A stretch of DNA of 10,981 nucleotides, taken from positions 1-10,981 of the IMG/VR virus record IMGVR_UViG_2778261688_000005; one strand, written 5' to 3'. The stretch is from a virus. Its lineage: Duplodnaviria; Heunggongvirae; Uroviricota; Caudoviricetes. This document shows positions 1 to 10,981 of the stretch, piece after piece. A program made the position numbers and the translations under genes. The notes under the pieces were generated by a model, which had not been told where the DNA came from, did no database searches, and worked only from the letters and a program-made list of their open reading frames with translations. Position 1 is the first letter of the stretch. Every line of letters begins with the position of its first letter.

Positions 1-753
1 GACAGGCGTGTCATCAGCATGGAGCTTACCGTCAGTCAGCACATAGTCCTGAAGCGCTTCTTCCAGCGGTGACAGTAGCCGGCAGCATGCATCCACCCAG
101 CCCGACAGCAGTGAACGACTCAGCTCCACGCCCTGGCGGCCGTACATTTCAGACTGGCGGTACAGCGGGGTGTGCTCTGCATACTTTGAGATCAGCACGC
201 GGGCCAGCAGCCCCGGTCCTGCGATACCCCGCTCGATGGGCCGTGAAGGCGCGGGGGCCTGCACGATGGCATCGCACTGAGTACAGGCATGCTTTTCACG
301 TACAGTCCGGATAACCCGGAAGGCGCTGCGCATCAGCTCCAGCTGTTCGGCGGCATCCTCACCCAGATAGCTCAGCGAGCCTCCACATTCCGGGCAGCAT
401 GACGCTGCCGGCAGCAGCCGTTTTTCATCGCGGGGGAGTGATTCGGGGAACGGTTTGCGGGTGCGGGTTTGACGCAGCGGGCGCTGCACGGCCGGGTCGT
501 CAACCCGACCGGTAAGGGTATCACTTTCTTTCTGAAGTGCCTTCAGGTCAGCTTCCATCTGTGCGATACGACGGGAGACTTTTTCCGAGCGGCTGCCGAA
601 GTTCATCCGGCGCAGCTTATCCAGCTGTGCCTGCAGATGGTCTATTTCGCGTTCACGCTCGTTCAGCTTTTCCTGCAGGGCACGGTTCAGCGCCTCCTGT
701 TCGGCAAGGAGACGTTTCAGTGCATTGATATCGTCAGGAAGTGAGCTGCTCAT
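1..753 (-). CDS. tnpC: IS66-family transposase TnpC, N-terminal 251 codons (3' end beyond window start)
   Basis: Reverse complement of 751-753 is ATG, followed by MSSSLPDDINA... The antisense of plus ORF 469..744 gives the leucine-rich coiled-coil region (LKRLLAEQEALNRALQEKLNEREREIDHLQAQLDKLRR) and a CxxC zinc-finger-like stretch typical of IS66 TnpC. No stop codon occurs in this frame down to position 1. Confidence 0.8.
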   Translation of the reverse strand, partial: MSSSLPDDINALKRLLAEQEALNRALQEKLNEREREIDHLQAQLDKLRRMNFGSRSEKVSRRIAQMEADLKALQKESDTLTGRVDDPAVQRPLRQTRTRKPFPESLPRDEKRLLPAASCCPECGGSLSYLGEDAAEQLELMRSAFRVIRTVREKHACTQCDAIVQAPAPSRPIERGIAGPGLLARVLISKYAEHTPLYRQSEMYGRQGVELSRSLLSGWVDACCRLLSPLEEALQDYVLTDGKLHADDTPV

Positions 754-801
754 ACCGGGTATATTACCAGGCTCATTCAGCGTCGACCAGGATAAAGAGG
801 C

Positions 802-1149
802 TTACAACATAGTCAGGGACGTAAGCAGTCTTTTAGGCTGCCGCCAGTCGATACCTTCCAGCAGCATCGCCAGCTGTGCCGGTGTGAGGAACACTTTGCC
901 ATCCCGGGCTGACGGCCAGGCGAAGCGGCCGCGCTCCAGCCGTTTGGTCAGCAGACACAGTCCATCGCCGGTAGACCAGAGGAGCTTTACCTGACTGCCA
1001 TTACGCCCACGGAAGATAAAAACGTGACCTGACATCGGATCGTCTTTCAGCGTCGTCTGCACCTTTGCCGCCAGGCCGTTGAAGCCGTTTCTCATATCGG
1101 TGATGCCAGCGACCAGCCAGATCTTTGTCCCTGATGGTAATGGGATCAA
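802..1149 (-). CDS. tnpB: IS66-family accessory protein TnpB (IS66 Orf2)
   Basis: 115-aa ORF MIPLPSGTKIWLVAGITDMRNGFNGLAAKV... has the length and signature of IS66 Orf2. It overlaps tnpA by 4 nt, as is usual for IS66 orfA/orfB. Confidence 0.85.
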   Translation of the reverse strand: MIPLPSGTKIWLVAGITDMRNGFNGLAAKVQTTLKDDPMSGHVFIFRGRNGSQVKLLWSTGDGLCLLTKRLERGRFAWPSARDGKVFLTPAQLAMLLEGIDWRQPKRLLTSLTML

Positions 1150-1550
1150 CGTTTGAGCTCCCGTATCAGCAGGTTCAGGATATTTTCGCTGATGGCACCA
1201 TTCAGACGGAGTGATCCGTGCCGGAACGTCACTTCACAGCTGATATTGAGTGATTCAGGTGTCGCAGCAGCTACAGGTTGTGACCGGGGGGAGGTTGTAG
1301 GGACAACATCTTCGGCATCAAGTGTTATCGGGAGCAGCTCAGGCACGTTGTTTTCTGTTGTTGAAGGAGGACGTAGTTTTCCTTCGCGCCAGTACTGGCG
1401 CCACTTGAACAGCAAATTATCGTTGATCCCATGCTCACGAGCGAGTTGCGCTACGGAGATCTCTGGTCGATGCGAGAGTTCAACCATTTTGATTTTGAAC
1501 TCAACGGGATAATTAGGGCTTTTTTTACGCACTGCGGTTAATGATTTCAT
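1146..1550 (-). CDS. tnpA: IS66-family TnpA (IS66 Orf1, helix-turn-helix protein)
   Basis: 134-aa ORF MKSLTAVRKKSPNYPVEFKIKMVELSHRPEISVAQLAREHGIN... with an HTH-like N-terminus, first gene of the IS66 triad, about 80 bp inside the putative IR. Confidence 0.85.
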   Translation of the reverse strand: MKSLTAVRKKSPNYPVEFKIKMVELSHRPEISVAQLAREHGINDNLLFKWRQYWREGKLRPPSTTENNVPELLPITLDAEDVVPTTSPRSQPVAAATPESLNISCEVTFRHGSLRLNGAISENILNLLIRELKR

Positions 1551-1599
1551 GGATTGCGTCCACCATATTTGGTGTCCACTATTCTCTCAGGAATTTCAG

Positions 1600-1631
1600 G
1601 ATCTGCCAGACGGTGCTGAGACGACGCTTAC
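1600..1631 (-). repeat. Putative terminal inverted repeat of the IS66-family element
   Basis: Reverse complement starts GTAAGCGTCGTCTCAGCACCGTCTGGCAG. The partner repeat lies outside the window, so this cannot be confirmed here. Confidence 0.45.
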
Positions 1632-1733
1632 GATAAAGACGGCTTTCTTGCCACAAATGGCAGCACGTTAACCATTCAGTCAAATGGTGCGGCGTTTACT
1701 GCCACAACCATCAAGATAATCGCGGAGCAGTAA
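1632..1733 (+). pseudogene. 3'-terminal 33-codon remnant of an upstream phage gene (probably the tail needle / P22 gene 26 equivalent), truncated by the IS66 insertion
   Basis: Open frame from 1632 (first base outside the IS terminus) to TAA at 1731-1733 encodes DKDGFLATNGSTLTIQSNGAAFTATTIKIIAEQ*. The stop overlaps the next ATG (TAATG), which is typical operon coupling. Identification as tail needle is by synteny only (P22 order 26-14-7-20-16). Confidence 0.4.
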
Positions 1734-2188
1734 TGATTCAGTTCAAACCAACGCGAAACATCGACCTGATCGAAGCAGTCGGAAATCACCCTGACATTAT
1801 TGCCGGGAGCAACAACGGTGATGGATACGACTACAAACCTGATTGCCGTTACTTTGAGGTGAACGTGCACGGGCAGTTCGGCGGCATTGTTTACTATCAG
1901 GAGATTCAGCCGCTGACATTAGATTGCCACGCCATGTACCTGCCAGAGATTCGCGGCTTCAGCAAGGAAATTGGGCTGGCGTTCTGGCGATACATTCTGA
2001 CTAACACCACCGTTCAGTGCGTCACATCGTTCGCCGCACGCAAATTCCGCCACGGTCAGATGTACTGCGCAATGATTGGCCTTAAGCGTGTAGGAACCAT
2101 CAAGAAATACTTCAAAGGCGTGGATGACGTGACTTTTTACAGCGCCACACGAGAAGAACTAATCGACTTCCTGAATCACGGGAGATAG
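1733..2188 (+). CDS. P22 gene 14-like protein (151 aa)
   Basis: ORF sits immediately upstream of the gp7/gp20/gp16-like cassette, in the position of P22 gene 14. GGAG lies 5 nt upstream of the ATG, and the start overlaps the preceding stop. Confidence 0.7.
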   Translation: MIQFKPTRNIDLIEAVGNHPDIIAGSNNGDGYDYKPDCRYFEVNVHGQFGGIVYYQEIQPLTLDCHAMYLPEIRGFSKEIGLAFWRYILTNTTVQCVTSFAARKFRHGQMYCAMIGLKRVGTIKKYFKGVDDVTFYSATREELIDFLNHGR

Positions 2189-2190
2189 CC

Positions 2191-2883
2191 ATGTTATATG
2201 CATTTAAGCTGGGCAGAAAACTGCGCGGCGAGGAACCTTATTGCCCTGAAAAGGGTGGGAAAGGTGGCAGTTCTGATAAAAGCGCAAAGTATGCAGCAGA
2301 AGCTCAGAAGTATGCCGCAGACCTGCAAAATCAGCAGTGGCAGACGATCATGAAAAACCTTGCTCCGTTCACGCCGCTTGCGGAGCAGTATGTTAACCAG
2401 CTTCAGAACCTTTCCAGTTTAGAAGGACAGGGTCAGGCACTTAATCAGTATTACAACTCTCAGCAGTATAAAGACCTTGCAGGCCAGGCTCGTTACCAGA
2501 GTCTTGCTGCTGCGGAGGCTACGGGAGGACTTGGTTCGACAGCCACAAGCAATCAACTTGCTACGATCGCGCCGACTCTCGGTCAGTCTTGGTTATCAAA
2601 CCAGATGAGCAATTACAACAATCTGGCAAACGTTGGGCTTGGTGCTCTGCAAGGTCAGGCAAACGCCGGGCAGACGTACGCCAACAACATGAGCAGCATT
2701 GCACAGCAAAGCGCAGCTCTTGCCGCTGCTAATGCCAACAAACCATCAAGTCTTCAGACAGCAATTAGTGGCGGAACGTCTGGTGCGATTGCCGGTGCAG
2801 GTCTTGCCAGCCTTTTGGGAACATCAACACCTTGGGGCGCTGGCATTGGTGCTGGTATCGGATTGCTTGGCTCGTTGTTTTAA
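2191..2883 (+). CDS. Ejection (internal virion) protein, P22 gp7-like (230 aa)
   Basis: GGGAG is 6 nt upstream of the ATG. The size is close to P22 gp7 (about 229 aa). The C-terminus is Gly/Ala-rich and hydrophobic (GAIAGAGLASLLG...GAGIGAGIGLLGSLF), consistent with a membrane-inserting segment. Position is second in the 14-7-20-16 order. Confidence 0.75.
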   Translation: MLYAFKLGRKLRGEEPYCPEKGGKGGSSDKSAKYAAEAQKYAADLQNQQWQTIMKNLAPFTPLAEQYVNQLQNLSSLEGQGQALNQYYNSQQYKDLAGQARYQSLAAAEATGGLGSTATSNQLATIAPTLGQSWLSNQMSNYNNLANVGLGALQGQANAGQTYANNMSSIAQQSAALAAANANKPSSLQTAISGGTSGAIAGAGLASLLGTSTPWGAGIGAGIGLLGSLF

Positions 2884-2892
2884 GGGGTAATC

Positions 2893-4188
2893 ATGGCTAC
2901 TTGGCAAGGATCAAATGGCGGATTGTTAGCTGGTATCGGCGGCGTCAACTCAAACGCTCCGAGCGTAAATGACATCGGCAATACGCTTCAGCTTATCAGG
3001 CAGAACAATGATATTGAGCGTTCAGGCGCTAACAATGTTGGGCTGACTGCTTTGCAAGGCCTTTCAGGTATTGCGGGGGTGTTTCAGCAGGAAAAGCAGG
3101 CTCAGCGGCAGAAAGAATTTCAGCAGGCATACGCTAATGCTTATGCGTCTGGTGATCGCGGTGCTTTGCGTCAGTTGGCTACTCAATATCCAGACCAGAT
3201 TGAATCCGTTCGTAAAGGCATGGGATTCATTGATGAAGATCAGCGTAATTCTATCGGCACCTTAGCGGCTGGCGCACGCCTTGCGTCATCGTCTCCAGAA
3301 GCAATGCAATCATGGCTGCAAAACAACGCCAAGGAACTGACTCGCGTCGGTGTTGACCCTAATAACGTTGCTCAGATGTATCAGCAGAACCCTTCAGGAT
3401 TTGGTGAGTTTGTTGATCACCTTGGAATGGCTGCTCTTGGTCCGATTGATTACTTCAATGTTCAGGACAAGATGGCTGGTCGTGAAATTGACCGAGGCAG
3501 GCTGGCAGAGACAATCCGCAGCAATCAGGCTGGAGAAGCACTAACAGCGCGTGGTCAGGACATCCAGATACGTGGACAGAACATCAGCGCACAGAATGCT
3601 GCTCTTTCCCGCGAAATACAAAGAGCAGAATTACAAGAAAAGGCTCTGGACAGACAGATAGCCAGAGAAAGCAATCAGTTAAAGCTTGAAGAGCTAAAAC
3701 AGAAACAGGCAGATGTTCGGCAAAAGGCTGACATAGCCCGCGCTGACAGGCAGGCCGCCGCTCAGGGTGCAGTTGATACGTTCAGCACAGCACTTGATTC
3801 TCTCAACGAGATAGAGCAAAGCCCCGGCCTTTCAAAAGCAGTAGGAATTCGCTCAGCGTTTCCAACAGTTCCTGGCTCTGATGCGGCTAACTTTGAAGCA
3901 AGGCTCGACACCTTTAAAGCTCAAACTTTCCTTCCTATGGTGCAGTCCCTTAAGGGTATGGGGGCTCTTTCAGATGCTGAGGGTAAAAAATTATCCGATG
4001 CGGTTGGTGCCCTAAGCCCCAAAATGAGCGAAAAGGCTTTTCGTGACTCTATCGGAAAGATTAGAAATCAGCTTGAAAGCAAGTTGAGCACTGTTAAAAA
4101 ACAGTTTGATTATCAGGATCCAGTACAGAATACGCCAGGACAACAATCTCCTGCTGGCAGTAACTTTTCTTCACTATGGGGTGATTAA
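2893..4188 (+). CDS. Ejection protein, P22 gp20-like (431 aa)
   Basis: AAGGGG ribosome-binding site upstream. Contains a long charged coiled-coil-like segment (REIQRAELQEKALDRQIARESNQLKLEELKQKQADVRQKADIARADRQ). Third in the syntenic cassette; its stop overlaps the next start (TAATG at 4186-4190). Confidence 0.75.
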   Translation: MATWQGSNGGLLAGIGGVNSNAPSVNDIGNTLQLIRQNNDIERSGANNVGLTALQGLSGIAGVFQQEKQAQRQKEFQQAYANAYASGDRGALRQLATQYPDQIESVRKGMGFIDEDQRNSIGTLAAGARLASSSPEAMQSWLQNNAKELTRVGVDPNNVAQMYQQNPSGFGEFVDHLGMAALGPIDYFNVQDKMAGREIDRGRLAETIRSNQAGEALTARGQDIQIRGQNISAQNAALSREIQRAELQEKALDRQIARESNQLKLEELKQKQADVRQKADIARADRQAAAQGAVDTFSTALDSLNEIEQSPGLSKAVGIRSAFPTVPGSDAANFEARLDTFKAQTFLPMVQSLKGMGALSDAEGKKLSDAVGALSPKMSEKAFRDSIGKIRNQLESKLSTVKKQFDYQDPVQNTPGQQSPAGSNFSSLWGD

Positions 4189-6185
4189 TGGCTAAAGCAT
4201 GGAAAGATGTTATCGCCTCTCCACAGTATCAGGCGTTAGCACCAGAACAAAAAGCGCAGGCTCAGGAGCAATACTTCAATGAAGTCGTGGCCCCGCAAGC
4301 CGGAGAAAATGCAGAGCAGGCTAAGCAAGCTTTCTATGCAGCCTATCCATTGCCATCTGTGCAGCCAGTGGAGACACAGCAACCAGTAGCACAGCAACAA
4401 CCACAGCAAAGTGGATTTATGTCTGATCTTGGTGAAGCAGTGAAAGAGACTGGTCGCGGACTGGTGCAGGCTGGCGTGAACGTGGCAAACATACCTGCAT
4501 CAGTTGCCGATGCTGTAACAAGCGCGGCGGCTTGGGCTGGCGGTAAACTCGGCATTGGCGATGGTACATATCAACCAGCGCCACGAGTAACAACGCAGGG
4601 ATTAGAGCAGGACTTTGGCCTTCGGCAAGGTGCGCTGACTCCACAAACGACAGAGGGAAGGGTATTTGCTGAAGCATTGCCTTACCTCACTCCTGCTGGC
4701 GTTGAGAGAGCGGCGGTACAGGCACCAACACTTGCTGGTCGAATTGCTCATGGGGCAACTCGCCTTCTCGCAGAAAACGCAGTTGGATCACTTGCTGCAA
4801 ACAGTATGAAAGATGATGCGGAAGCACTCGCTACCGATTTAGGTGTTGGCGTTCTGGCAGGCGGCGCTATTAACGCTGCTGGACGTGGATTAGGTGCTGC
4901 TTATCGTGGCGTCCGCGGTGCTATTGCGCCAGAAGCGCAGCAAGCTATCAGATTTGCAGAGCGTGAAGGAGTTCCTCTGCACACCACAGACCTGTTACAA
5001 CCCACTTCCCGCGTCGGAAAAATGGCGCAGACTACAGCAGAAAATATCCCTCTGGCTGGCACAAGCGGAATGAGAGCAACGCAACAGGAAGCGAGAAGCC
5101 AGTTGGTGCAGAGATTTGCCGATAAATTCGGTGAGTATGATCCAGCGGTTGTTATTGACAGCCTTAAAGCGAAAACATCAGGAATTCGTCGTGCCGCCGG
5201 TAATCGACTGGAGCAGGTTCAGAATGCTATGGCTGGAGTAAACATTCAGCCTGCGCGAGCAATTCAGCAGATTGATACAGAAATATCTAACCTGCAGAAG
5301 CTTGGTAAGGTCGCCGATAACGAGACTATTTCAAAACTTCAGTCCTATCGTGATGAGCTTGTTCGCAATGCTGGTCCGGATGGTCCGGTAAATCTGGATT
5401 TGAAGCAATTAAGCGATCTGCGCAGCCAGTTCAGAATGGACGTGAAGGGGGAACGACCAGTGTTACCAAACCGTTCCGATGCTGCCATTCAGCGCGTTTA
5501 CAAGGCGATGACAGACGATATCAATGGTGCCATTGGTCAGAATCTTGGCAACGATACTCTCCGTAAATATCAGCAGGCCAATGCCGTCTACGCTGACGAA
5601 GCGGCGAAACTAAAGAATACCAGGCTGAAGAATGTTCTCATGAAAGGCGACCTGACGCCGGAAGTTGTCAACAACATGCTATTCAGCAAGAACAAATCGG
5701 AAATTAAGACGCTGTATAACTCAGTTGGTCGTGTTGGCAGGGCGCAAATGCGCAATGGCATCATTGGAAAGGCGATGGAGAAATCTGGCGGATCCCCTGA
5801 CCAGTTCCTTCGGCAGCTTAACATCCTGCAAAACCAGACTGGCATCACATTTAAAGGTCAGGAAGCCGCTTATCTGAAAGGATTGAAAAACTACCTGCAA
5901 TCCACGCAGCAGGCTGCAAAAGCAGCAGTAACAACACCAACAGGGCAGCAAACCATCCCGTTCATTATCGGGTATGGGACGGCAATGAACCCGGCGACAA
6001 CTGGCGCAGCGGTAAGCTACGGACTTCTTACTCGCGCCTATGAGAGCGAGCCATTCAGAAATGCAATGCTCCGAATGGCAAATACCCCACGCGGATCGAC
6101 AGCGTTTGAGAAAGCCATGCAGCAAGCGCAAAAAGCGATTAATGCACTGACGCAGGGTGCGAAGTCTGATTCGTTGTCAGAATAG
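4188..6185 (+). CDS. Ejection protein, P22 gp16-like (665 aa)
   Basis: Large Ala/Gln-rich protein, last gene of the cassette and translationally coupled to the gp20-like gene. The size is in the range of P22 gp16 (about 609 aa). Confidence 0.75.
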   Translation: MAKAWKDVIASPQYQALAPEQKAQAQEQYFNEVVAPQAGENAEQAKQAFYAAYPLPSVQPVETQQPVAQQQPQQSGFMSDLGEAVKETGRGLVQAGVNVANIPASVADAVTSAAAWAGGKLGIGDGTYQPAPRVTTQGLEQDFGLRQGALTPQTTEGRVFAEALPYLTPAGVERAAVQAPTLAGRIAHGATRLLAENAVGSLAANSMKDDAEALATDLGVGVLAGGAINAAGRGLGAAYRGVRGAIAPEAQQAIRFAEREGVPLHTTDLLQPTSRVGKMAQTTAENIPLAGTSGMRATQQEARSQLVQRFADKFGEYDPAVVIDSLKAKTSGIRRAAGNRLEQVQNAMAGVNIQPARAIQQIDTEISNLQKLGKVADNETISKLQSYRDELVRNAGPDGPVNLDLKQLSDLRSQFRMDVKGERPVLPNRSDAAIQRVYKAMTDDINGAIGQNLGNDTLRKYQQANAVYADEAAKLKNTRLKNVLMKGDLTPEVVNNMLFSKNKSEIKTLYNSVGRVGRAQMRNGIIGKAMEKSGGSPDQFLRQLNILQNQTGITFKGQEAAYLKGLKNYLQSTQQAAKAAVTTPTGQQTIPFIIGYGTAMNPATTGAAVSYGLLTRAYESEPFRNAMLRMANTPRGSTAFEKAMQQAQKAINALTQGAKSDSLSE

Positions 6186-6226
6186 CCTTTCAAACACCAG
6201 GAACGTGCAAAAACCAAATATGTAGA

Positions 6227-6254
6227 ATGCAATATTCATCATATCTCTTTGCAT
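6227..6254. promoter_or_regulatory. Second copy of the dyad motif (ATGCAA-N16-TTGCAT with internal CATCATATC) in the gp16 / mnt intergenic region
   Basis: ATGCAA 6227-6232, CATCATATC 6237-6245, TTGCAT 6249-6254. Same sequence elements as the 6609-6637 site, arranged differently. Confidence 0.25.
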
Positions 6255-6274
6255 AAATCCTCCGTAATGGATGG

Positions 6275-6535
6275 TTAGTTGCTGTCTTTTTTATATAGCT
6301 CCTTGAGCGTATCAAAGACAATTTTCTTAACCATATCAGATTGTTGTTCTGCCATACGCTCTGCATCGTCAATGTAAACTGATGCAGAGCTTTGTTTATC
6401 CAATGATTCTTCAATCGCTGCAATTATCTCTGAGTTCAGCGACCTGTTATTCATCTTCGCACGCTGCTTAATTTTCGCGTGGAGTTCATGCGGAAGTCTC
6501 AAGTGAAACTGCGCCTCGTCGTATTTGCTGTACAT
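6275..6535 (-). CDS. mnt: Mnt-like ribbon-helix-helix repressor (Arc/Mnt family); the ORF extends to an upstream ATG at 6568, but the internal ATG at 6535 aligns with the P22 Mnt start
   Basis: FHLRLPHELHAKIKQRAKMNNRSLNSEIIAAIEESL matches the RHH region of P22 Mnt as I recall it (HFNFRMPMEVREKLKFRAEANGRSMNSELLQIVQDAL). The C-terminus DDAERMAEQQSDMVKKIVFDTLKELYKK matches the Mnt tetramerisation helix (NDAERLADEQSELVKKMVFDTLKDLYKK). Confidence 0.8.
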   Translation of the reverse strand: MYSKYDEAQFHLRLPHELHAKIKQRAKMNNRSLNSEIIAAIEESLDKQSSASVYIDDAERMAEQQSDMVKKIVFDTLKELYKKDSN

Positions 6536-6608
6536 CCTTGATGCCTCACCAGTTGGGTGGAATGGCATCGTAACCTACTGGATAAATACTCAATAGTACC
6601 ATTTCGGT

Positions 6609-6637
6609 ATGCAATCACATCATGGTTGCATCATATC
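6609..6637. promoter_or_regulatory. Dyad element ATGCAA-N11-TTGCAT followed by CATCATATC in the mnt / tailspike divergent intergenic region; candidate operator and promoter region
   Basis: ATGCAA at 6609-6614 and its reverse complement TTGCAT at 6626-6631; the 9-mer CATCATATC at 6629-6637 is repeated on the other side of mnt. It lies between two divergently transcribed genes. Confidence 0.3.
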
Positions 6638-6656
6638 ATTCGTTTGGAGCAATGAA

Positions 6657-8639
6657 ATGTCAGATATCACCGCAAATGTTGTGGTAAGCATGCCTTCGCA
6701 ACTCTTCACTATGGCTCGTTCTTTTAAAGCCGTAGCCAATGGCAAAATTTATATCGGAAAAATTGACACTGACCCGGTAAATCCAGAAAACCAGATCCAG
6801 GTTTATGTGGAGAACGAAGATGGCTCTCATGTTCCTGTTTCGCAACCAATCATCATTAACGCTGCTGGATATCCGGTATATAACGGACAGATTGCCAAGT
6901 TCGTAACTGTGCAAGGCCATTCTATGGCTGTTTATGATGCGTACGGTGCGCAGCAGTTCTATTTTCCTAATGTGCTGAAGTATGACCCGGATCAGCTTGA
7001 GCAGAGGCTCTCTTCTTTTGATGGGCAAAAATATATAGGAGTATGTCCAGACATTGTCACATTACGAACAATAGAGCCAACGGTTGATGGCCAAATGATA
7101 ACTCTTAAGCAACACACAGATGGAACAGGGATTGGTGGTGGTAGATTTCGCGCTGTTTTACATGGTGAATCTTACTCTGATAACAACGGGACTATAGTTA
7201 AAACTGTTGGCGGCTCTGCTTGGTTGCGCATTAATGCTGATGTAGTAAACCCATTGATGTTTGGAGCTTATGGAGACGGTATTACTGATGACACGGAAGC
7301 TGTTAATAATGCAATTGCTTCATCAAGCAATATTGATGGCGTTGCAAACACATACCTTGTATCAGGTAATGGCATACAAATTCAGCATGGTAAAACATTT
7401 AAAAATGCAACAATAACTGAGTCGAAAGCAAGCAATGCCGTTATGCTGAGATTTACAGGTAGTAATTCGGCAATAGAAAACATTATTTTCGATGGTTCCA
7501 ATGGATTAACAAGCAGAGGGGTAATTGTCAACGCTGGTCTTTCTGATATACACATCTACAAATGCAGAGCGACTGACCTTAAAAAACCATTTGTAGGAGT
7601 GTCTGGAGACTATGATAATAATCTTTTCTGTGTTCGAGTAACAATTGAAAAATGTTTCGCCAATAACTGCGGAAATGATGGTACAAATTACGACCGTTCA
7701 ACAATAATATTTGACGGGGTTTCAGGTTGCACTGTAAAAGATTGCTATTTCAGCTCATGCAATTGGGGAATTACTTTCAGACAGCCGTATGACTACCCAG
7801 AGTTAACAAAACCTTATGCGTACTACAACAGAGTTGATGGTTGCTACTTATCCGGGAAGACCGGTTACCCATATAATCAGGGTATCAGCGCGCAAAGCCA
7901 AAAACATTTCTCAGCATCAGGAAACACGATAGAAGGATTTTTAGGTAACGCTATCGATAACCAAAGATGTGACTTTAGTCGCATCGAAAACAATAAACTT
8001 TCATCCGGAGATGATGGTATCTTTTTTGGTGATTTAAACTGCAAGGGCCACGTTGTGACTGGTAACGTGATTACTGGATGTGCAAGGGGTATTAGGGTTT
8101 ACGGTGCCGTTGGAGATTGGGCTAATCAGGCCATGACGGATATCACCATAACCGGTAACATAATAACGGACTCCACCGTAGTAGGCATCTATGTGTACCG
8201 CACGGAGCCGACTAACTCCTTTGCTGGTTTTAACATCACAGAAAATATCATAGACAACTCAGGCACAAGGTCGCTAACCGGCAACACACAAGGCATTCTC
8301 GTAACAGGGTTGTCAGGTGGCGTCGTGTCGAATAACGTTATACGCAATACACGCATGGAAGGGTTAAGGTTCGTTAACTCTGTCGGGGTTGTGGCTGTGG
8401 GTAATTCTGTGACTGGATTCGATTACTCTGCTACGGCGCAAGCTGGTATTTACATCGATGTAACTTCAAGAGGTATACAACTAAGAAATTCAACTGTTTC
8501 ATCTTCAGGTGGTTCAGGTGCAGCAGTTAGAGAAGCGGGCGTTAATAACACGGTCACCGGAACCAGATGGAATGGAGTCACTACTGGGGTTAACTCAACC
8601 GGCACAGGTGCTGTATTGGACGATAACGTTGGATTTTAA
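6657..8639 (+). CDS. Tailspike protein: P22-type head-binding N-terminal domain fused to a right-handed beta-helix (pectate-lyase-like) receptor-binding domain, a putative polysaccharide depolymerase
   Basis: From the ATG at 6657 (GGAG 7 nt upstream) the protein starts [59 protein letters not shown]...VLKYDPDQ, which matches the P22 gp9 N-terminus ([43 protein letters not shown]...). After about residue 115 it diverges into a sequence with a [21 protein letters not shown] motif and repetitive G/N/T/V-rich beta-helix-like segments. The ORF track starts at 6609, but the homology-supported start is 6657. Confidence 0.85.
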
Positions 8640-8641
8640 AA

Positions 8642-8666
8642 AAAGAGCGCCTTGTTGGCGCTCTTT
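8642..8666. terminator. Hairpin terminator between the convergent tailspike and acyltransferase genes
   Basis: AAAGAGCGCC-TTGTT-GGCGCTCTTT gives a 10-bp stem with a 5-nt loop. On the minus strand it is followed by a run of seven T (complement of AAAAAAA at 8638-8644), a strong intrinsic terminator for the acyltransferase transcript. On the plus strand only TTT follows. Confidence 0.6.
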
Positions 8667-8668
8667 AA

Positions 8669-9691
8669 TCACGTTATTATTTTCAATTTATTCTTTATCA
8701 TTATTGGTAAAATTGGTACTATAATTCCGAGAAAAACATACAATATAAATGAGAATTGATTGTATACATTATTTAGCTTCCCATGCTCATGGTTTTCAAA
8801 TCCAAAAAATAGAAATAATAAATTTAACATTGCAAAAACAGATAGATGCCATGACATTATTGTTTTCGAATTGTCTCCTATCATTTTCAATAATCTATTA
8901 TATTTAGATGATAGGATATTGGATATTATTAACACTACAAAGATACATATCAATGATGCTATTGATGTCATAATAAAACCAGATGGGTATGTTGACCATG
9001 CCATTGCACTTTGTTTTATCAATCCAAATGATATCATTGTTCCTGTTATAACTATCAAAATCATTGCTGATATTGGGTTATTTACTGTTAGTGATTGTTT
9101 TTTTAGTGAAAAGCCAAGTAGCATAAACATAGAACCATAAAGTGACTGTGCGGAAACATTATAAATTTGATATCCAGTCTCCTTAAATTTTACTGCGCAT
9201 ATGTTAAGCGCCACAAAGCCAATAATTATTGCAATTATAATTAACGTAATATTTTGGTGTTTAAACTCAGTAGTTACTGAGATTATAATCCTTGATATTA
9301 TTGATGATAAGTAATAAGCAAGCAAAAACCAACAAACAAGAAATAATGGGTTGTTGTGAAAGTTCTTTTCTAGTGGGTTGGTAGTGAACGGTTCGCCAAA
9401 ATACAGTCCTGTAAATTTATTTAGTGTTATTGCTAAAACTCCAGTTAGAATGTACGTAAAAACAATGTATGGGATTATTTTTTTTGATAGTTTTCTCAAT
9501 GCGTTGAACGTAACTATCTCATTTTTTAATGTCAATCCACCAACAAAAAAGAAAAAAGGCATGTGATATAAATACGGATGCATTACATTAAAGAACCCAC
9601 TTGTGTAATGACCTATCACAACAACTATTATGCCGATTGCCTTCATGTAACTTATGGACAAGCTTTGTTCATTGGTAATTTGGTGCATTTT
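8669..9691 (-). CDS. oac: Acyltransferase-3 family integral membrane protein, Oac-like O-antigen acetyltransferase (lysogenic conversion); the ORF extends to an ATG at 9733, but 9691 is the preferred start
   Basis: Polytopic hydrophobic protein of about 340 aa with a conserved His early in the first membrane segment (MKAIGIIVVVIGHY) and an FFFFVGG motif. It sits between tailspike and integrase, as oac does in Sf6 and the gtr genes do in P22. The gene is markedly AT-rich relative to its flanks. The second ATG is preceded by AAGAGA; the first has no Shine-Dalgarno sequence. Confidence 0.75.
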   Translation of the reverse strand, partial: KMHQITNEQSLSISYMKAIGIIVVVIGHYTSGFFNVMHPYLYHMPFFFFVGGLTLKNEIVTFNALRKLSKKIIPYIVFTYILTGVLAITLNKFTGLYFGEPFTTNPLEKNFHNNPLFLVCWFLLAYYLSSIISRIIISVTTEFKHQNITLIIIAIIIGFVALNICAVKFKETGYQIYNVSAQSLYGSMFMLLGFSLKKQSLTVNNPISAMILIVITGTMISFGLIKQSAMAWSTYPSGFIMTSIASLICIFVVLIISNILSSKYNRLLKMIGDNSKTIMSWHLSVFAMLNLLFLFFGFENHEHGKLNNVYNQFSFILYVFLGIIVPILPIMIKNKLKIIT

Positions 9692-9733
9692 TATCTCTTC
9701 ATTTCTATGTGGCAATATTTTCGCAAAAAACAT

Positions 9734-9823
9734 ACGAATGTTAATTTATTAATATACCAATAACATTTGAGTTAGTATGCAATTTTAAAATGTTTGTTCT
9801 ATGTGTGTGCTTTGGATGATATA
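9734..9823 (-). promoter_or_regulatory. AT-rich intergenic region upstream of the acyltransferase gene; likely promoter and possible attP location by synteny
   Basis: The minus strand contains TTGCAT (9777-9782) and an extended -10-like TGGTATATT (about 9751-9759), but the spacing between them is about 20 nt, which is too long. No tRNA-like core is visible. Confidence 0.25.
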
Positions 9824-10981
9824 TCACTCCACCTTTTCATCAAGCCAGTCCGCCCACCACTGCATCATTTCTCTGCGCTTATCTAGATATTGAGCATGGT
9901 TGTAAATCCCGCGCACAGATCCGCCGTTGGCATGTGCCAGTTGCACTTCAATAGCGTCAGCAGGCCATTCGTGCTCGTTCATAATCGTGCTGAATTCATG
10001 CCTGAATCCGTGACCGCTTTCCAGCCCCTCATAGCCGATTTGTTTGATCACAAGTAGCACCGCGTTCTCGCAGATTGGCTTCTTCTTATCGTTACGCCCT
10101 GCAAAAACAAACTCTGATACTGGTTTGGTGATGGAGCTTAACGTAGTGAGAAGTTCAACCACCTGGTCTGACATCGGGACCACATGAATTTTGCGTCCCT
10201 TCATCACATTGGCGTCGATGGTGATAATCCTGTTTTCAAAATCGACGTTCTTCCATAGCATGGAACGAAGCTCTTTTGTTCTGAGGGCTGTGTAGCGTAA
10301 AACTTTGGTCGCAATGAGCGATACGATACTTCCTGAAAATGTTGCCAGTGCTTTGTTAAATGCCGGGATCTGGTCTGCAGGAAGAAACGGGAAGTTCTTC
10401 TTGCGGTATCCTTTCATGGCGTCAGCAAGGTCAGGTGCCGGGTTATATTTAGCCCTGCCGGTGACAATAGCGTAACGGAAAACCTCGCCGCATCTTCTGC
10501 GGGCTTTATTTGCTCGCTCCATTGCGCCGCGATCTTCAAATCTGCGGATTACTTCCAGCAGTTGCATCGGCTCAATATCCTGAATTTCAAGGCCGCCGAT
10601 GATGGGTAAAATGTCGTCATCAAACATTTTGGCAAGTTCAGTTGCATAGCCTACTGACCAGACTTGCTTCTTGTGCTCGTACCATTCCTTGTAAATCGCA
10701 CTAAAGGAATTGTTGTTAGACGAAGCCTTTTTCGCCTTTACCGGATCGATGCCAACCGAGATGTCTTTCCTCGCAGTCCATGCTTTATCCCTTGCCTCTT
10801 GCAAAGTCATAAGCGGATATTTTCCGACGGTCAGGATTTTCTCCTTACCGTCAATCTTGTAGCGAAGCTGCCATACCTTTTTCCCGGATACAGGGACATA
10901 AAGGTACAGGCCATTACCATCGAGAAGGCGGTATGGTTTTTCTTTCGGCTTTGCTGCTTCAATCTGCTTAACGGTGAGCAT
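9824..10981 (-). CDS. int: Tyrosine site-specific integrase, P4-type (arm-binding N-terminal domain plus catalytic domain)
   Basis: 385-aa ORF. The N-terminus LTVKQIEAAKPKEKPYRLLDGNGLYLYVPVSGKKVWQLRYKIDGKE is the typical P4-family arm-binding domain. The C-terminus carries the catalytic residues in HGFRHEFST...LAHANGGSVRGIYNHAQY (R...HxxR...Y). The start ATG is the last codon of the window, so the true N-terminus could lie a few codons further upstream. Confidence 0.9.
   Translation of the reverse strand: MLTVKQIEAAKPKEKPYRLLDGNGLYLYVPVSGKKVWQLRYKIDGKEKILTVGKYPLMTLQEARDKAWTARKDISVGIDPVKAKKASSNNNSFSAIYKEWYEHKKQVWSVGYATELAKMFDDDILPIIGGLEIQDIEPMQLLEVIRRFEDRGAMERANKARRRCGEVFRYAIVTGRAKYNPAPDLADAMKGYRKKNFPFLPADQIPAFNKALATFSGSIVSLIATKVLRYTALRTKELRSMLWKNVDFENRIITIDANVMKGRKIHVVPMSDQVVELLTTLSSITKPVSEFVFAGRNDKKKPICENAVLLVIKQIGYEGLESGHGFRHEFSTIMNEHEWPADAIEVQLAHANGGSVRGIYNHAQYLDKRREMMQWWADWLDEKVE

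Follow-up and report, generated by a model that had tools for sequence, protein, structure and literature searches.

The window, that is, the whole stretch of 10,981 nucleotides analysed here, very probably documents a simple insertion, by ordinary transposition, of a single copy of the IS66-family element ISEc22, which splits the gene for the tail needle in an Sf6/P22-like prophage. It corresponds to bases 1-10,981 of the 128-kb contig NLGU01000015.1 from the assembly GCA_002225785.1 (contig label L017), a match found by looking up the exact sequence of the gp20-like protein and corroborated by sequence comparison, in which the window is identical to the beginning of that contig. (A look-up of the gp14-like protein gave only intact prophages, this protein being too widespread and the gp20-like one specific enough.) The left edge of the window is a short-read assembly break inside a multi-copy IS and is silent on the DNA further left. 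Since the window begins at base 1 of the contig, the statement in the sequence-only reading that the upstream gene had been displaced down to a 33-codon tail describes the contig correctly but not the genome, where the needle gene is not missing beyond these codons: its 5' part sits on another contig, as seen in sibling assemblies. The left part of the window is occupied by the following features.

Positions 1-1631, minus strand: ISEc22 (IS66 family), the tnpA-proximal 1631 nt of the 2455-bp element, with 100% identity to L003:2501-4131
Positions 1-753, minus strand: tnpC (DDE transposase), N-terminal 251 aa only, with Pfam matches to LZ_Tnp_IS66, zf-IS66 and DDE_Tnp_IS66 (model positions 1-77 of 284)
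Positions 802-1149, minus strand: tnpB, IS66 accessory protein (PF05717 TnpB_IS66, E=1.6e-38)
Positions 1146-1550, minus strand: tnpA, IS66 accessory HTH protein (PF01527 HTH_Tnp_1), called 'IS66-like element accessory protein TnpA' where identical copies are annotated
Positions 1606-1631, minus strand: terminal inverted repeat of ISEc22 (reverse complement GTAAGCGTCGTCTCAGCACCGTCTGG), the last IS base being 1631
Positions 1632-1639, plus strand: right-hand copy of the 8-bp target-site duplication, GATAAAGA, the same 8 bp standing before the other IS end
Positions 1632-1733, plus strand: Sf6-type tail-needle (knob) gene, 3' remnant comprising codons 250-282 and the TAA, recognized by homology to intact needle genes

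The three co-oriented genes tnpA-tnpB-tnpC represent the architecture of the IS66 family, to which the sequence-only reading had already assigned the element, and the Pfam matches together with the 100% identity to an ISEc22 copy bear this assignment out. (The product of the IS66 tnpB gene is unrelated to the TnpB protein of IS200/IS605 elements.) The window contains only two thirds of ISEc22, a truncation due to the contig stopping within the element and not to any biological cause, and the C-terminal end of tnpC can be read on another contig (L021, see below). The name ISEc22 rests on the PGAP annotation of an identical copy as 'IS66-like element ISEc22 family'. Our reference copy, from E. 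coli 6409 (L003), is complete, measures 2455 bp and runs from GTAAGCGTGCAGC... to ...GACGACGCTTAC; its ends, GTAAGCGT.../...ACGCTTAC (GTAAGCG...CGCTTAC), directly abut an 8-bp duplication, GAATAACC, on both sides. As this complete copy is 100% identical to the part of the element present in the window, the IS terminus in the window is fixed at position 1631. Indeed, the termini are of the imperfect GTAAGCG type characteristic of the IS66 family, with the IS in the window ending ...ACGCTTAC at 1631 and the far end reading GTAAGCGTGCAGC in L003, L021 and L022. Aligned by eye, the two ends of ISEc22 agree at about 17 of their first 26 positions, and an inverted-repeat finder did not report the terminal inverted repeats, which are too imperfect. 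Complete E. coli genomes contain thousands of copies, which bear the same ISEc22-family annotation, with 992 records having a best megablast match of at least 99% identity; tape-measure, terminase and lytic-transglycosylase genes are among the features that underlie the matches elsewhere. A promoter scan of positions 1-2300 found no sigma-70-like site, and the terminator-like hairpins there are weak and at chance level; the sequence thus gives no evidence suggestive of an outward-firing IS promoter.

The remaining part of the window comprises the right arm of the prophage, with the genes listed below.

Positions 1733-2188, plus strand: gp14-like (DUF2824) gene (PF11039, E=5e-53), in synteny with Sf6 gene 10
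Positions 2191-2883, plus strand: gp7-like ejection-protein gene, intact, among the PF25688 / PF16928 Pfam matches, in synteny with Sf6
Positions 2893-4188, plus strand: gp20-like ejection-protein gene, intact, among the PF25688 / PF16928 Pfam matches, in synteny with Sf6
Positions 4188-6185, plus strand: gp16-like ejection-protein gene, intact (PF26808, precomputed for the 665-aa product), in synteny with Sf6
Positions 6657-8639, plus strand: tailspike (PF09008 Head_binding plus beta-helix)
Positions 8669-9688, minus strand: low-GC acyltransferase (PF01757; GC 0.31-0.34 at 8401-9600)
Positions 9824-10,981, minus strand: integrase, from Pfam matches

An Mnt/Arc-type repressor is also present in the right arm, and in the parent contig a tRNA-Arg(CCU) gene sits 160 nt past int. 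The late-region order gp14-gp7-gp20-gp16-(mnt/arc)-tailspike, with a P22 head-binding domain in the tailspike and, beyond it, a conversion gene and then int at a tRNA, is that of P22-like (Lederbergvirus-type) phages, and the DNA at positions 1632-2400 is 95-98% identical to Sf6, HK620, CUS-3 and similar P22-like phages. The prophage is a standard Sf6/P22-like one, integrated at argW in E. coli. Its exact right arm was not found among the complete RefSeq E. coli genomes, the best match there covering 70%.

The identity of the interrupted gene is evident from the short segment between the IS and the gp14-like gene. Positions 1632-1730 translate to DKDGFLATNGSTLTIQSNGAAFTATTIKIIAEQ, i.e. 33 codons, followed by TAA at 1731-1733, and this stop overlaps the gp14-like ATG at 1733 (TAATG), as it does at the boundary of Sf6 gene 9 and gene 10. 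The positions given for the IS end, the 33 codons and the overlapping stop in the sequence-only reading all hold, as does its proposal that the disrupted gene encodes the tail needle: the remnant is identical to Sf6 gene 9 at 32 of its 33 residues, aligning to residues 129-161 of PDB 3RWN (the Sf6 knob), and its 102 nt agree without a mismatch with the 3' end of the intact needle gene in five E. coli loci (L014, L016, L018, L019 and L020), with all 33 residues shared. The Sf6 annotation at this gene is 'tail needle protein'. Homology to Sf6 gene 9 and to the intact E. coli prophage needle genes begins at 1632 to the base, and since this breakpoint coincides to the base with the verified IS terminus, it is not a chance pattern. 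The gene order also matches that of Sf6, with gp10 followed by the needle 5' part on L021 and L022 and the needle 3' part followed by the DUF2824 gene in the window. We also considered the remnant as an independent small gene and rejected this reading on account of the lack of a start codon and the presence of a same-frame TGA at 1617-1619, 12 nt inside the IS; the ORF list of the window has no ORF ending at 1733. The 33-codon remnant is non-functional on its own.

A simple insertion makes a precise prediction about the other junction, which should read ...GTG GAT AAA GA/G TAA GCG... (the slash marking the IS end), with a product consisting of needle residues 1-251, a Glu and a stop. We therefore built the 252-aa products predicted from eight needle variants of related loci and looked them up by exact sequence. 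Seven of these needle(1-251)+E variants were absent in the exact-sequence look-up, and one was found as WP_089580645.1, 'tail needle knob protein [Escherichia coli]', 252 aa, which occurs only on short contigs; the matching variant is the needle of the closest relatives, L016, L018, L019 and L020. The contigs in question, L021 (GCA_965257995.1, 2647 nt) and L022 (GCA_002227175.1, NLJE01000048.1, 2478 nt), share one layout, comprising an intact gp10, the needle 5' part, the sequence ...CTTCAGCGTGGATAAAGA joined directly to GTAAGCGTGCAGCAAGAACCG... and then, on the minus strand, the C-terminal end of tnpC. Read in frame, the junction is ...GTG GATAAAGA followed by GTAAGCGTGCAGC..., and GATAAAGA stands directly before the far IS end at positions 2342-2349 in L021 and 2344-2351 in L022, so that an 8-bp target-site duplication is present, its left copy being taken from sibling assemblies.

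Finding the needle 5' part at the far end of the IS, with GATAAAGA duplicated, argues for a simple insertion and not for a deletion boundary. The sequence-only reading had raised the latter alternative, according to which ISEc22 would mark the point where a deletion or rearrangement mediated by the IS had taken away the 5' part of the needle gene together with the prophage left arm. The window, indeed, holds nothing to the left of the IS, and there is IS-associated decay in this lineage, with an ISEc52 end abutting gene 4 in L019, L021 and L022 and an internal position of gp10 in L020. The left window edge is, however, merely a contig end, and in the sibling assemblies the far end of ISEc22 is immediately adjoined by the needle 5' part, with the intact gp10 before it and the 8 bp repeated at the joint; an adjacent deletion or recombination between IS copies would destroy such a duplication. 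We thus regard a deletion boundary as very improbable for ISEc22, and the intact target-site duplication likewise argues against two ISEc22 copies with intervening DNA.

Further support for the simple insertion comes from the distribution of the two junctions and of the empty site. The left junction is present on four contigs and the right junction also on four, with more than one accession series and Logan read-set assemblies represented among them, and both junctions are oriented as expected of one IS copy. An uninterrupted needle gene, with a single GATAAAGA at the site, occurs in L014, L016, L018, L019, L020 and Sf6, and four of these relatives (L016, L018, L019 and L020) are 99.98-100% identical to positions 1632-10,981 of the window and have an intact 282-aa needle. 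The left junction is displayed here for GCA_002227175.1 and GCA_965257995.1, which are siblings, and not individually for the window assembly GCA_002225785.1; the simple insertion in the strain of the window itself rests on the four-to-four match of the junction contigs. A junction produced by the assembler, i.e. a chimeric contig end joining a repeat to phage DNA, could be suspected in view of the contig ending in a multi-copy repeat and of the insertion junction not being found in the complete RefSeq E. coli genomes searched; an exact search with a right-junction 32-mer in a contig collection with one genome per species also gave 0 matches. Such an artefact is nevertheless hardly credible, as the junctions recur across the contig sets mentioned above and a misassembly would not give a break at the true IS terminus to the base together with a reciprocal 8-bp duplication.

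The present arrangement very probably arose as follows. ISEc22 (2455 bp) transposed into codons 250-252 of the 282-codon needle gene, in an orientation opposing the phage late operon, and duplicated the 8 bp GATAAAGA in doing so. Duplications of 8 bp are what IS66-family elements generally make at their targets. The split gene now consists of a 5' part encoding residues 1-251 plus Glu and a stop (252 aa) and a 3' part left as a dead 33-codon fragment, at positions 1632-1733 of the window. The short-read assembler was unable to bridge the multi-copy IS, and both the contig and the window for this reason start inside it.

ISEc22 is not the only IS associated with this prophage. At their start, the left-junction contigs carry the end of an IS3-family element, ISEc52, located ~2.2 kb upstream of the ISEc22 insertion; its 128 nt match copies in Nissle 1917 and numerous further genomes at 100% identity. 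In gene 4, which has 160 codons, ISEc52 adjoins codon 148, twelve codons before the gene end, and the same ISEc52-gene 4 junction is also found in L019, one of the relatives with an empty ISEc22 site. In L020 the same ISEc52 end abuts an internal gp10 position instead, which hints at either a deletion next to the IS or an insertion of its own, and L016 and L018, which contain no ISEc52 sequence, begin at the ISEc52 breakpoints or beside them. Six predicted gp4(1-148)+ISEc52 read-through products (assuming 3- or 4-bp target-site duplications) were absent from the look-up, these being approximate queries in which three gp4 variants stand in for the gp4 of the lineage. The left-junction contigs stop at the ISEc52 end inside gene 4, and the full left arm, with terminase, portal, scaffold, coat and gp4, is present in a close relative (L014). 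The presence of ISEc52 in gene 4 makes for a stronger case of prophage decay.

The consequences of the ISEc22 insertion for the needle can be predicted to some extent. The 252-aa product keeps 251 of the 282 needle residues, among them those of the portal-plug domain and of the coiled-coil shaft, and residues 1-145 of the needle align to P22 gp26 structures. It matches PF16532 (Phage_tail_NK) at model positions 1-145 of 175, positions 146-175, about the last sixth of the knob, being lost. The truncated needle is presumably impaired by this loss and would likely be misfolded and destabilised. The break falls at Asp250, which is among the residues mutated as part of the L-glutamate site of the knob (PMC3741392). 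In P22, gene 26, encoding the needle, is essential, with an amber mutation at codon 54 giving the null phenotype (PMC3741392). Work on the same phage has established that exchanging the C-terminal tip domain of the needle for an Sf6/HS1 knob causes no defect (PMC3741392), and that replacing the tip with a foldon causes a partial defect, manifested as tiny plaques, ~10-fold lower PFU per particle and slow DNA delivery, so the C-terminal domain is not strictly indispensable (Leavitt et al. 2013, PMC3741392). Taking away the C-terminal domain makes the trimer less stable, and the authors for this reason avoided a plain truncation (PMC3741392).

It might be argued that the insertion is functionally mild, with the 252-aa needle still trimerising, plugging the portal and supporting some infectivity, such that ISEc22 alone would not be crippling. 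That the plug domain at the N-terminus and the entire coiled-coil shaft are kept speaks for this possibility. Late-operon antitermination is established P22 biology, and it could conceivably read through the IS. P22 with a foldon needle tip, moreover, still forms plaques (PMC3741392). We consider a mild effect rather unlikely, given that the stability of the trimer depends on the C-terminal domain (PMC3741392), that the knob is not cleanly removed and, having lost about its last sixth, would probably misfold, that a 2.45-kb insert enlarges a genome packaged by the headful mechanism, and that ISEc52 independently interrupts gene 4 in the same contigs. From the truncated needle combined with ISEc52 in gene 4, we infer that the prophage is unlikely to make normal infectious virions. 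The earlier argument that the needle is essential and the prophage hence probably defective is accordingly a reasonable one, to which the second IS adds support; it is weaker than originally put, considering the extent of the needle retained and the fact that the P22 C-terminal domain is not strictly required. The right-arm genes for the tailspike, the O-antigen-type acyltransferase and the integrase remain intact.

A more adventurous interpretation, which we deem improbable, is that the successive IS events represent a selected 'grounding' of a serotype-converting prophage, or that a natural knob-crippled Sf6-type virion exists with the 252-aa needle assembling into it. Under grounding, ISEc52 would have entered gene 4 (it abuts gp10 in some siblings) and ISEc22 would subsequently have entered the needle knob; if this were true, virion production would be abolished while the tailspike, the low-GC O-antigen-type acyltransferase, the integrase and the Mnt-like repressor would be kept.

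The finding itself is routine prophage decay of a kind already known, with no new system involved, and has little importance beyond annotation. In that respect, the 33-codon fragment and WP_089580645.1 are halves of one IS-split gene, which should be annotated as a pseudogene, and prophage-calling tools should score the prophage as probably defective. Where the edge of a window falls within an IS, it may be due to a break in the draft assembly and not to a biological boundary, and a junction missing for this reason is recoverable by predicting the fusion product and looking up its exact sequence.

Compared with ISEc22 copies known from E. coli and other Enterobacteriaceae, the copy in the window is 100% identical over 1631 nt and shows no difference except for the new site. 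The needle that it interrupts differs from P22 gp26 in being of the Sf6 type with a knob domain (PF16532) and not of the gp26 tip type, the two being functional equivalents. With Sf6 gene 9 it shares the position between gp10 and gp14, and its 5' part matches PF16532 as well as the gp26 N-terminal and shaft structures; unlike Sf6 gene 9, the gene here is interrupted, and its 252-aa product ends ...FFSVDK-E, losing the last 31 native residues. The engineered needle tips of P22 (PMC3741392) resemble the present case in that only the distal C-terminal domain is altered, with the plug and shaft kept. They are, however, clean swaps to a foldon or a foreign knob that preserve trimerisation, whereas here a transposon cuts the knob part-way. 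The closest parallel at the level of the insertion is an IS66-family element, ISKpn24, residing in gp7 of a P22-like prophage of E. coli 1368KP (NZ_CM173843.1) and flanked by the 8-bp target-site duplication GAAGTATG. The two cases have in common the IS family, the orientation with respect to the late operon and the gene cluster hit; they differ in the isoform, in the target gene, which in the ISKpn24 case lies 0.6 kb downstream, and in that the contiguous complete genome of 1368KP shows both junctions directly.

ISEc22 entered the tail needle gene at the codon for Asp250 (window 1632-1634). Four residues, Glu146, Lys200, Ser248 and Asp250, have been mutated as part of the L-glutamate site in the needle knob (PMC3741392), and the match between the insertion point and one of them is probably a coincidence. 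At its left edge, position 1 of the window is base 1 of the draft contig NLGU01000015.1, and tnpC and the IS look truncated there because the assembly breaks inside a repeat; this is no biological end.

In most independent ISEc22 copies from various E. coli genomes, the match to the window reaches 4-8 nt past the IS end (to 1635-1639), and the features underlying such matches include prophage genes for tape measure, terminase and lytic transglycosylase. The extension past the IS end may hint that ISEc22 prefers targets with a G-A/T-rich sequence beside its tnpA-proximal end, or it may be an edge effect of the alignment. An independent IS66-family insertion is found in a different P22-like prophage, that of E. 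coli 1368KP (NZ_CM173843.1, locus L002):

L002:6583-9036, ISKpn24 (IS66 family), within the gp7 ejection-protein gene

This copy has the same orientation as ISEc22 here and is flanked by an 8-bp target-site duplication, GAAGTATG.

Upstream of the ISEc22 site, at a distance of about 2.2 kb, there is an end of a second element, as seen in two sibling-assembly contigs (L022, L021) and two near-identical prophages with an uninterrupted needle gene (L019, L020):

L022:1-127, L021:1-125, L019:1-28 and L020:1-26, end of ISEc52 (IS3 family)

Gene 4 is joined to this end at codon 148 of 160 (junction ...ACCACTTCA|AGGCGATCTCC). In L020 the same ISEc52 end is joined to an internal position of gp10 (...ACCACTTCA|TTCATCAGCAATCC), which suggests that DNA next to the IS was deleted or that the element inserted there separately.

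Further to the right lie the tailspike and acyltransferase genes:

6609-8639, plus strand, tailspike ORF, delimited mechanically from the ATG at 6609
8669-9688, minus strand, Acyl_transf_3 gene of low GC content (0.31-0.34)

Gene callers place the tailspike start at 6657 (MSDITANVV..., 660 aa), and with this start the match to the Pfam Head_binding model begins at residue 1. For the receptor-binding part (NosD/beta-helix), none of the complete RefSeq E. coli genomes searched gave a match at the megablast level, the best coverage being 70%. In L014, a close relative, the equivalent acyltransferase gene is shorter (203 aa) and accompanied by an extra ORF of 115 aa, so it is possibly disrupted there. 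Flanked by the tailspike and integrase genes, the Acyl_transf_3 gene occupies the place of serotype-conversion genes (Sf6 oac or gtr). About 160 nt past the integrase start, the parent contig (L017) carries a tRNA gene, followed by yfdC-like and mlaA genes:

L017:11143-11217, minus strand, tRNA-Arg(CCU) (argW)

The right end of the prophage is located at the usual attachment site of the Sf6/KpLE1 type.
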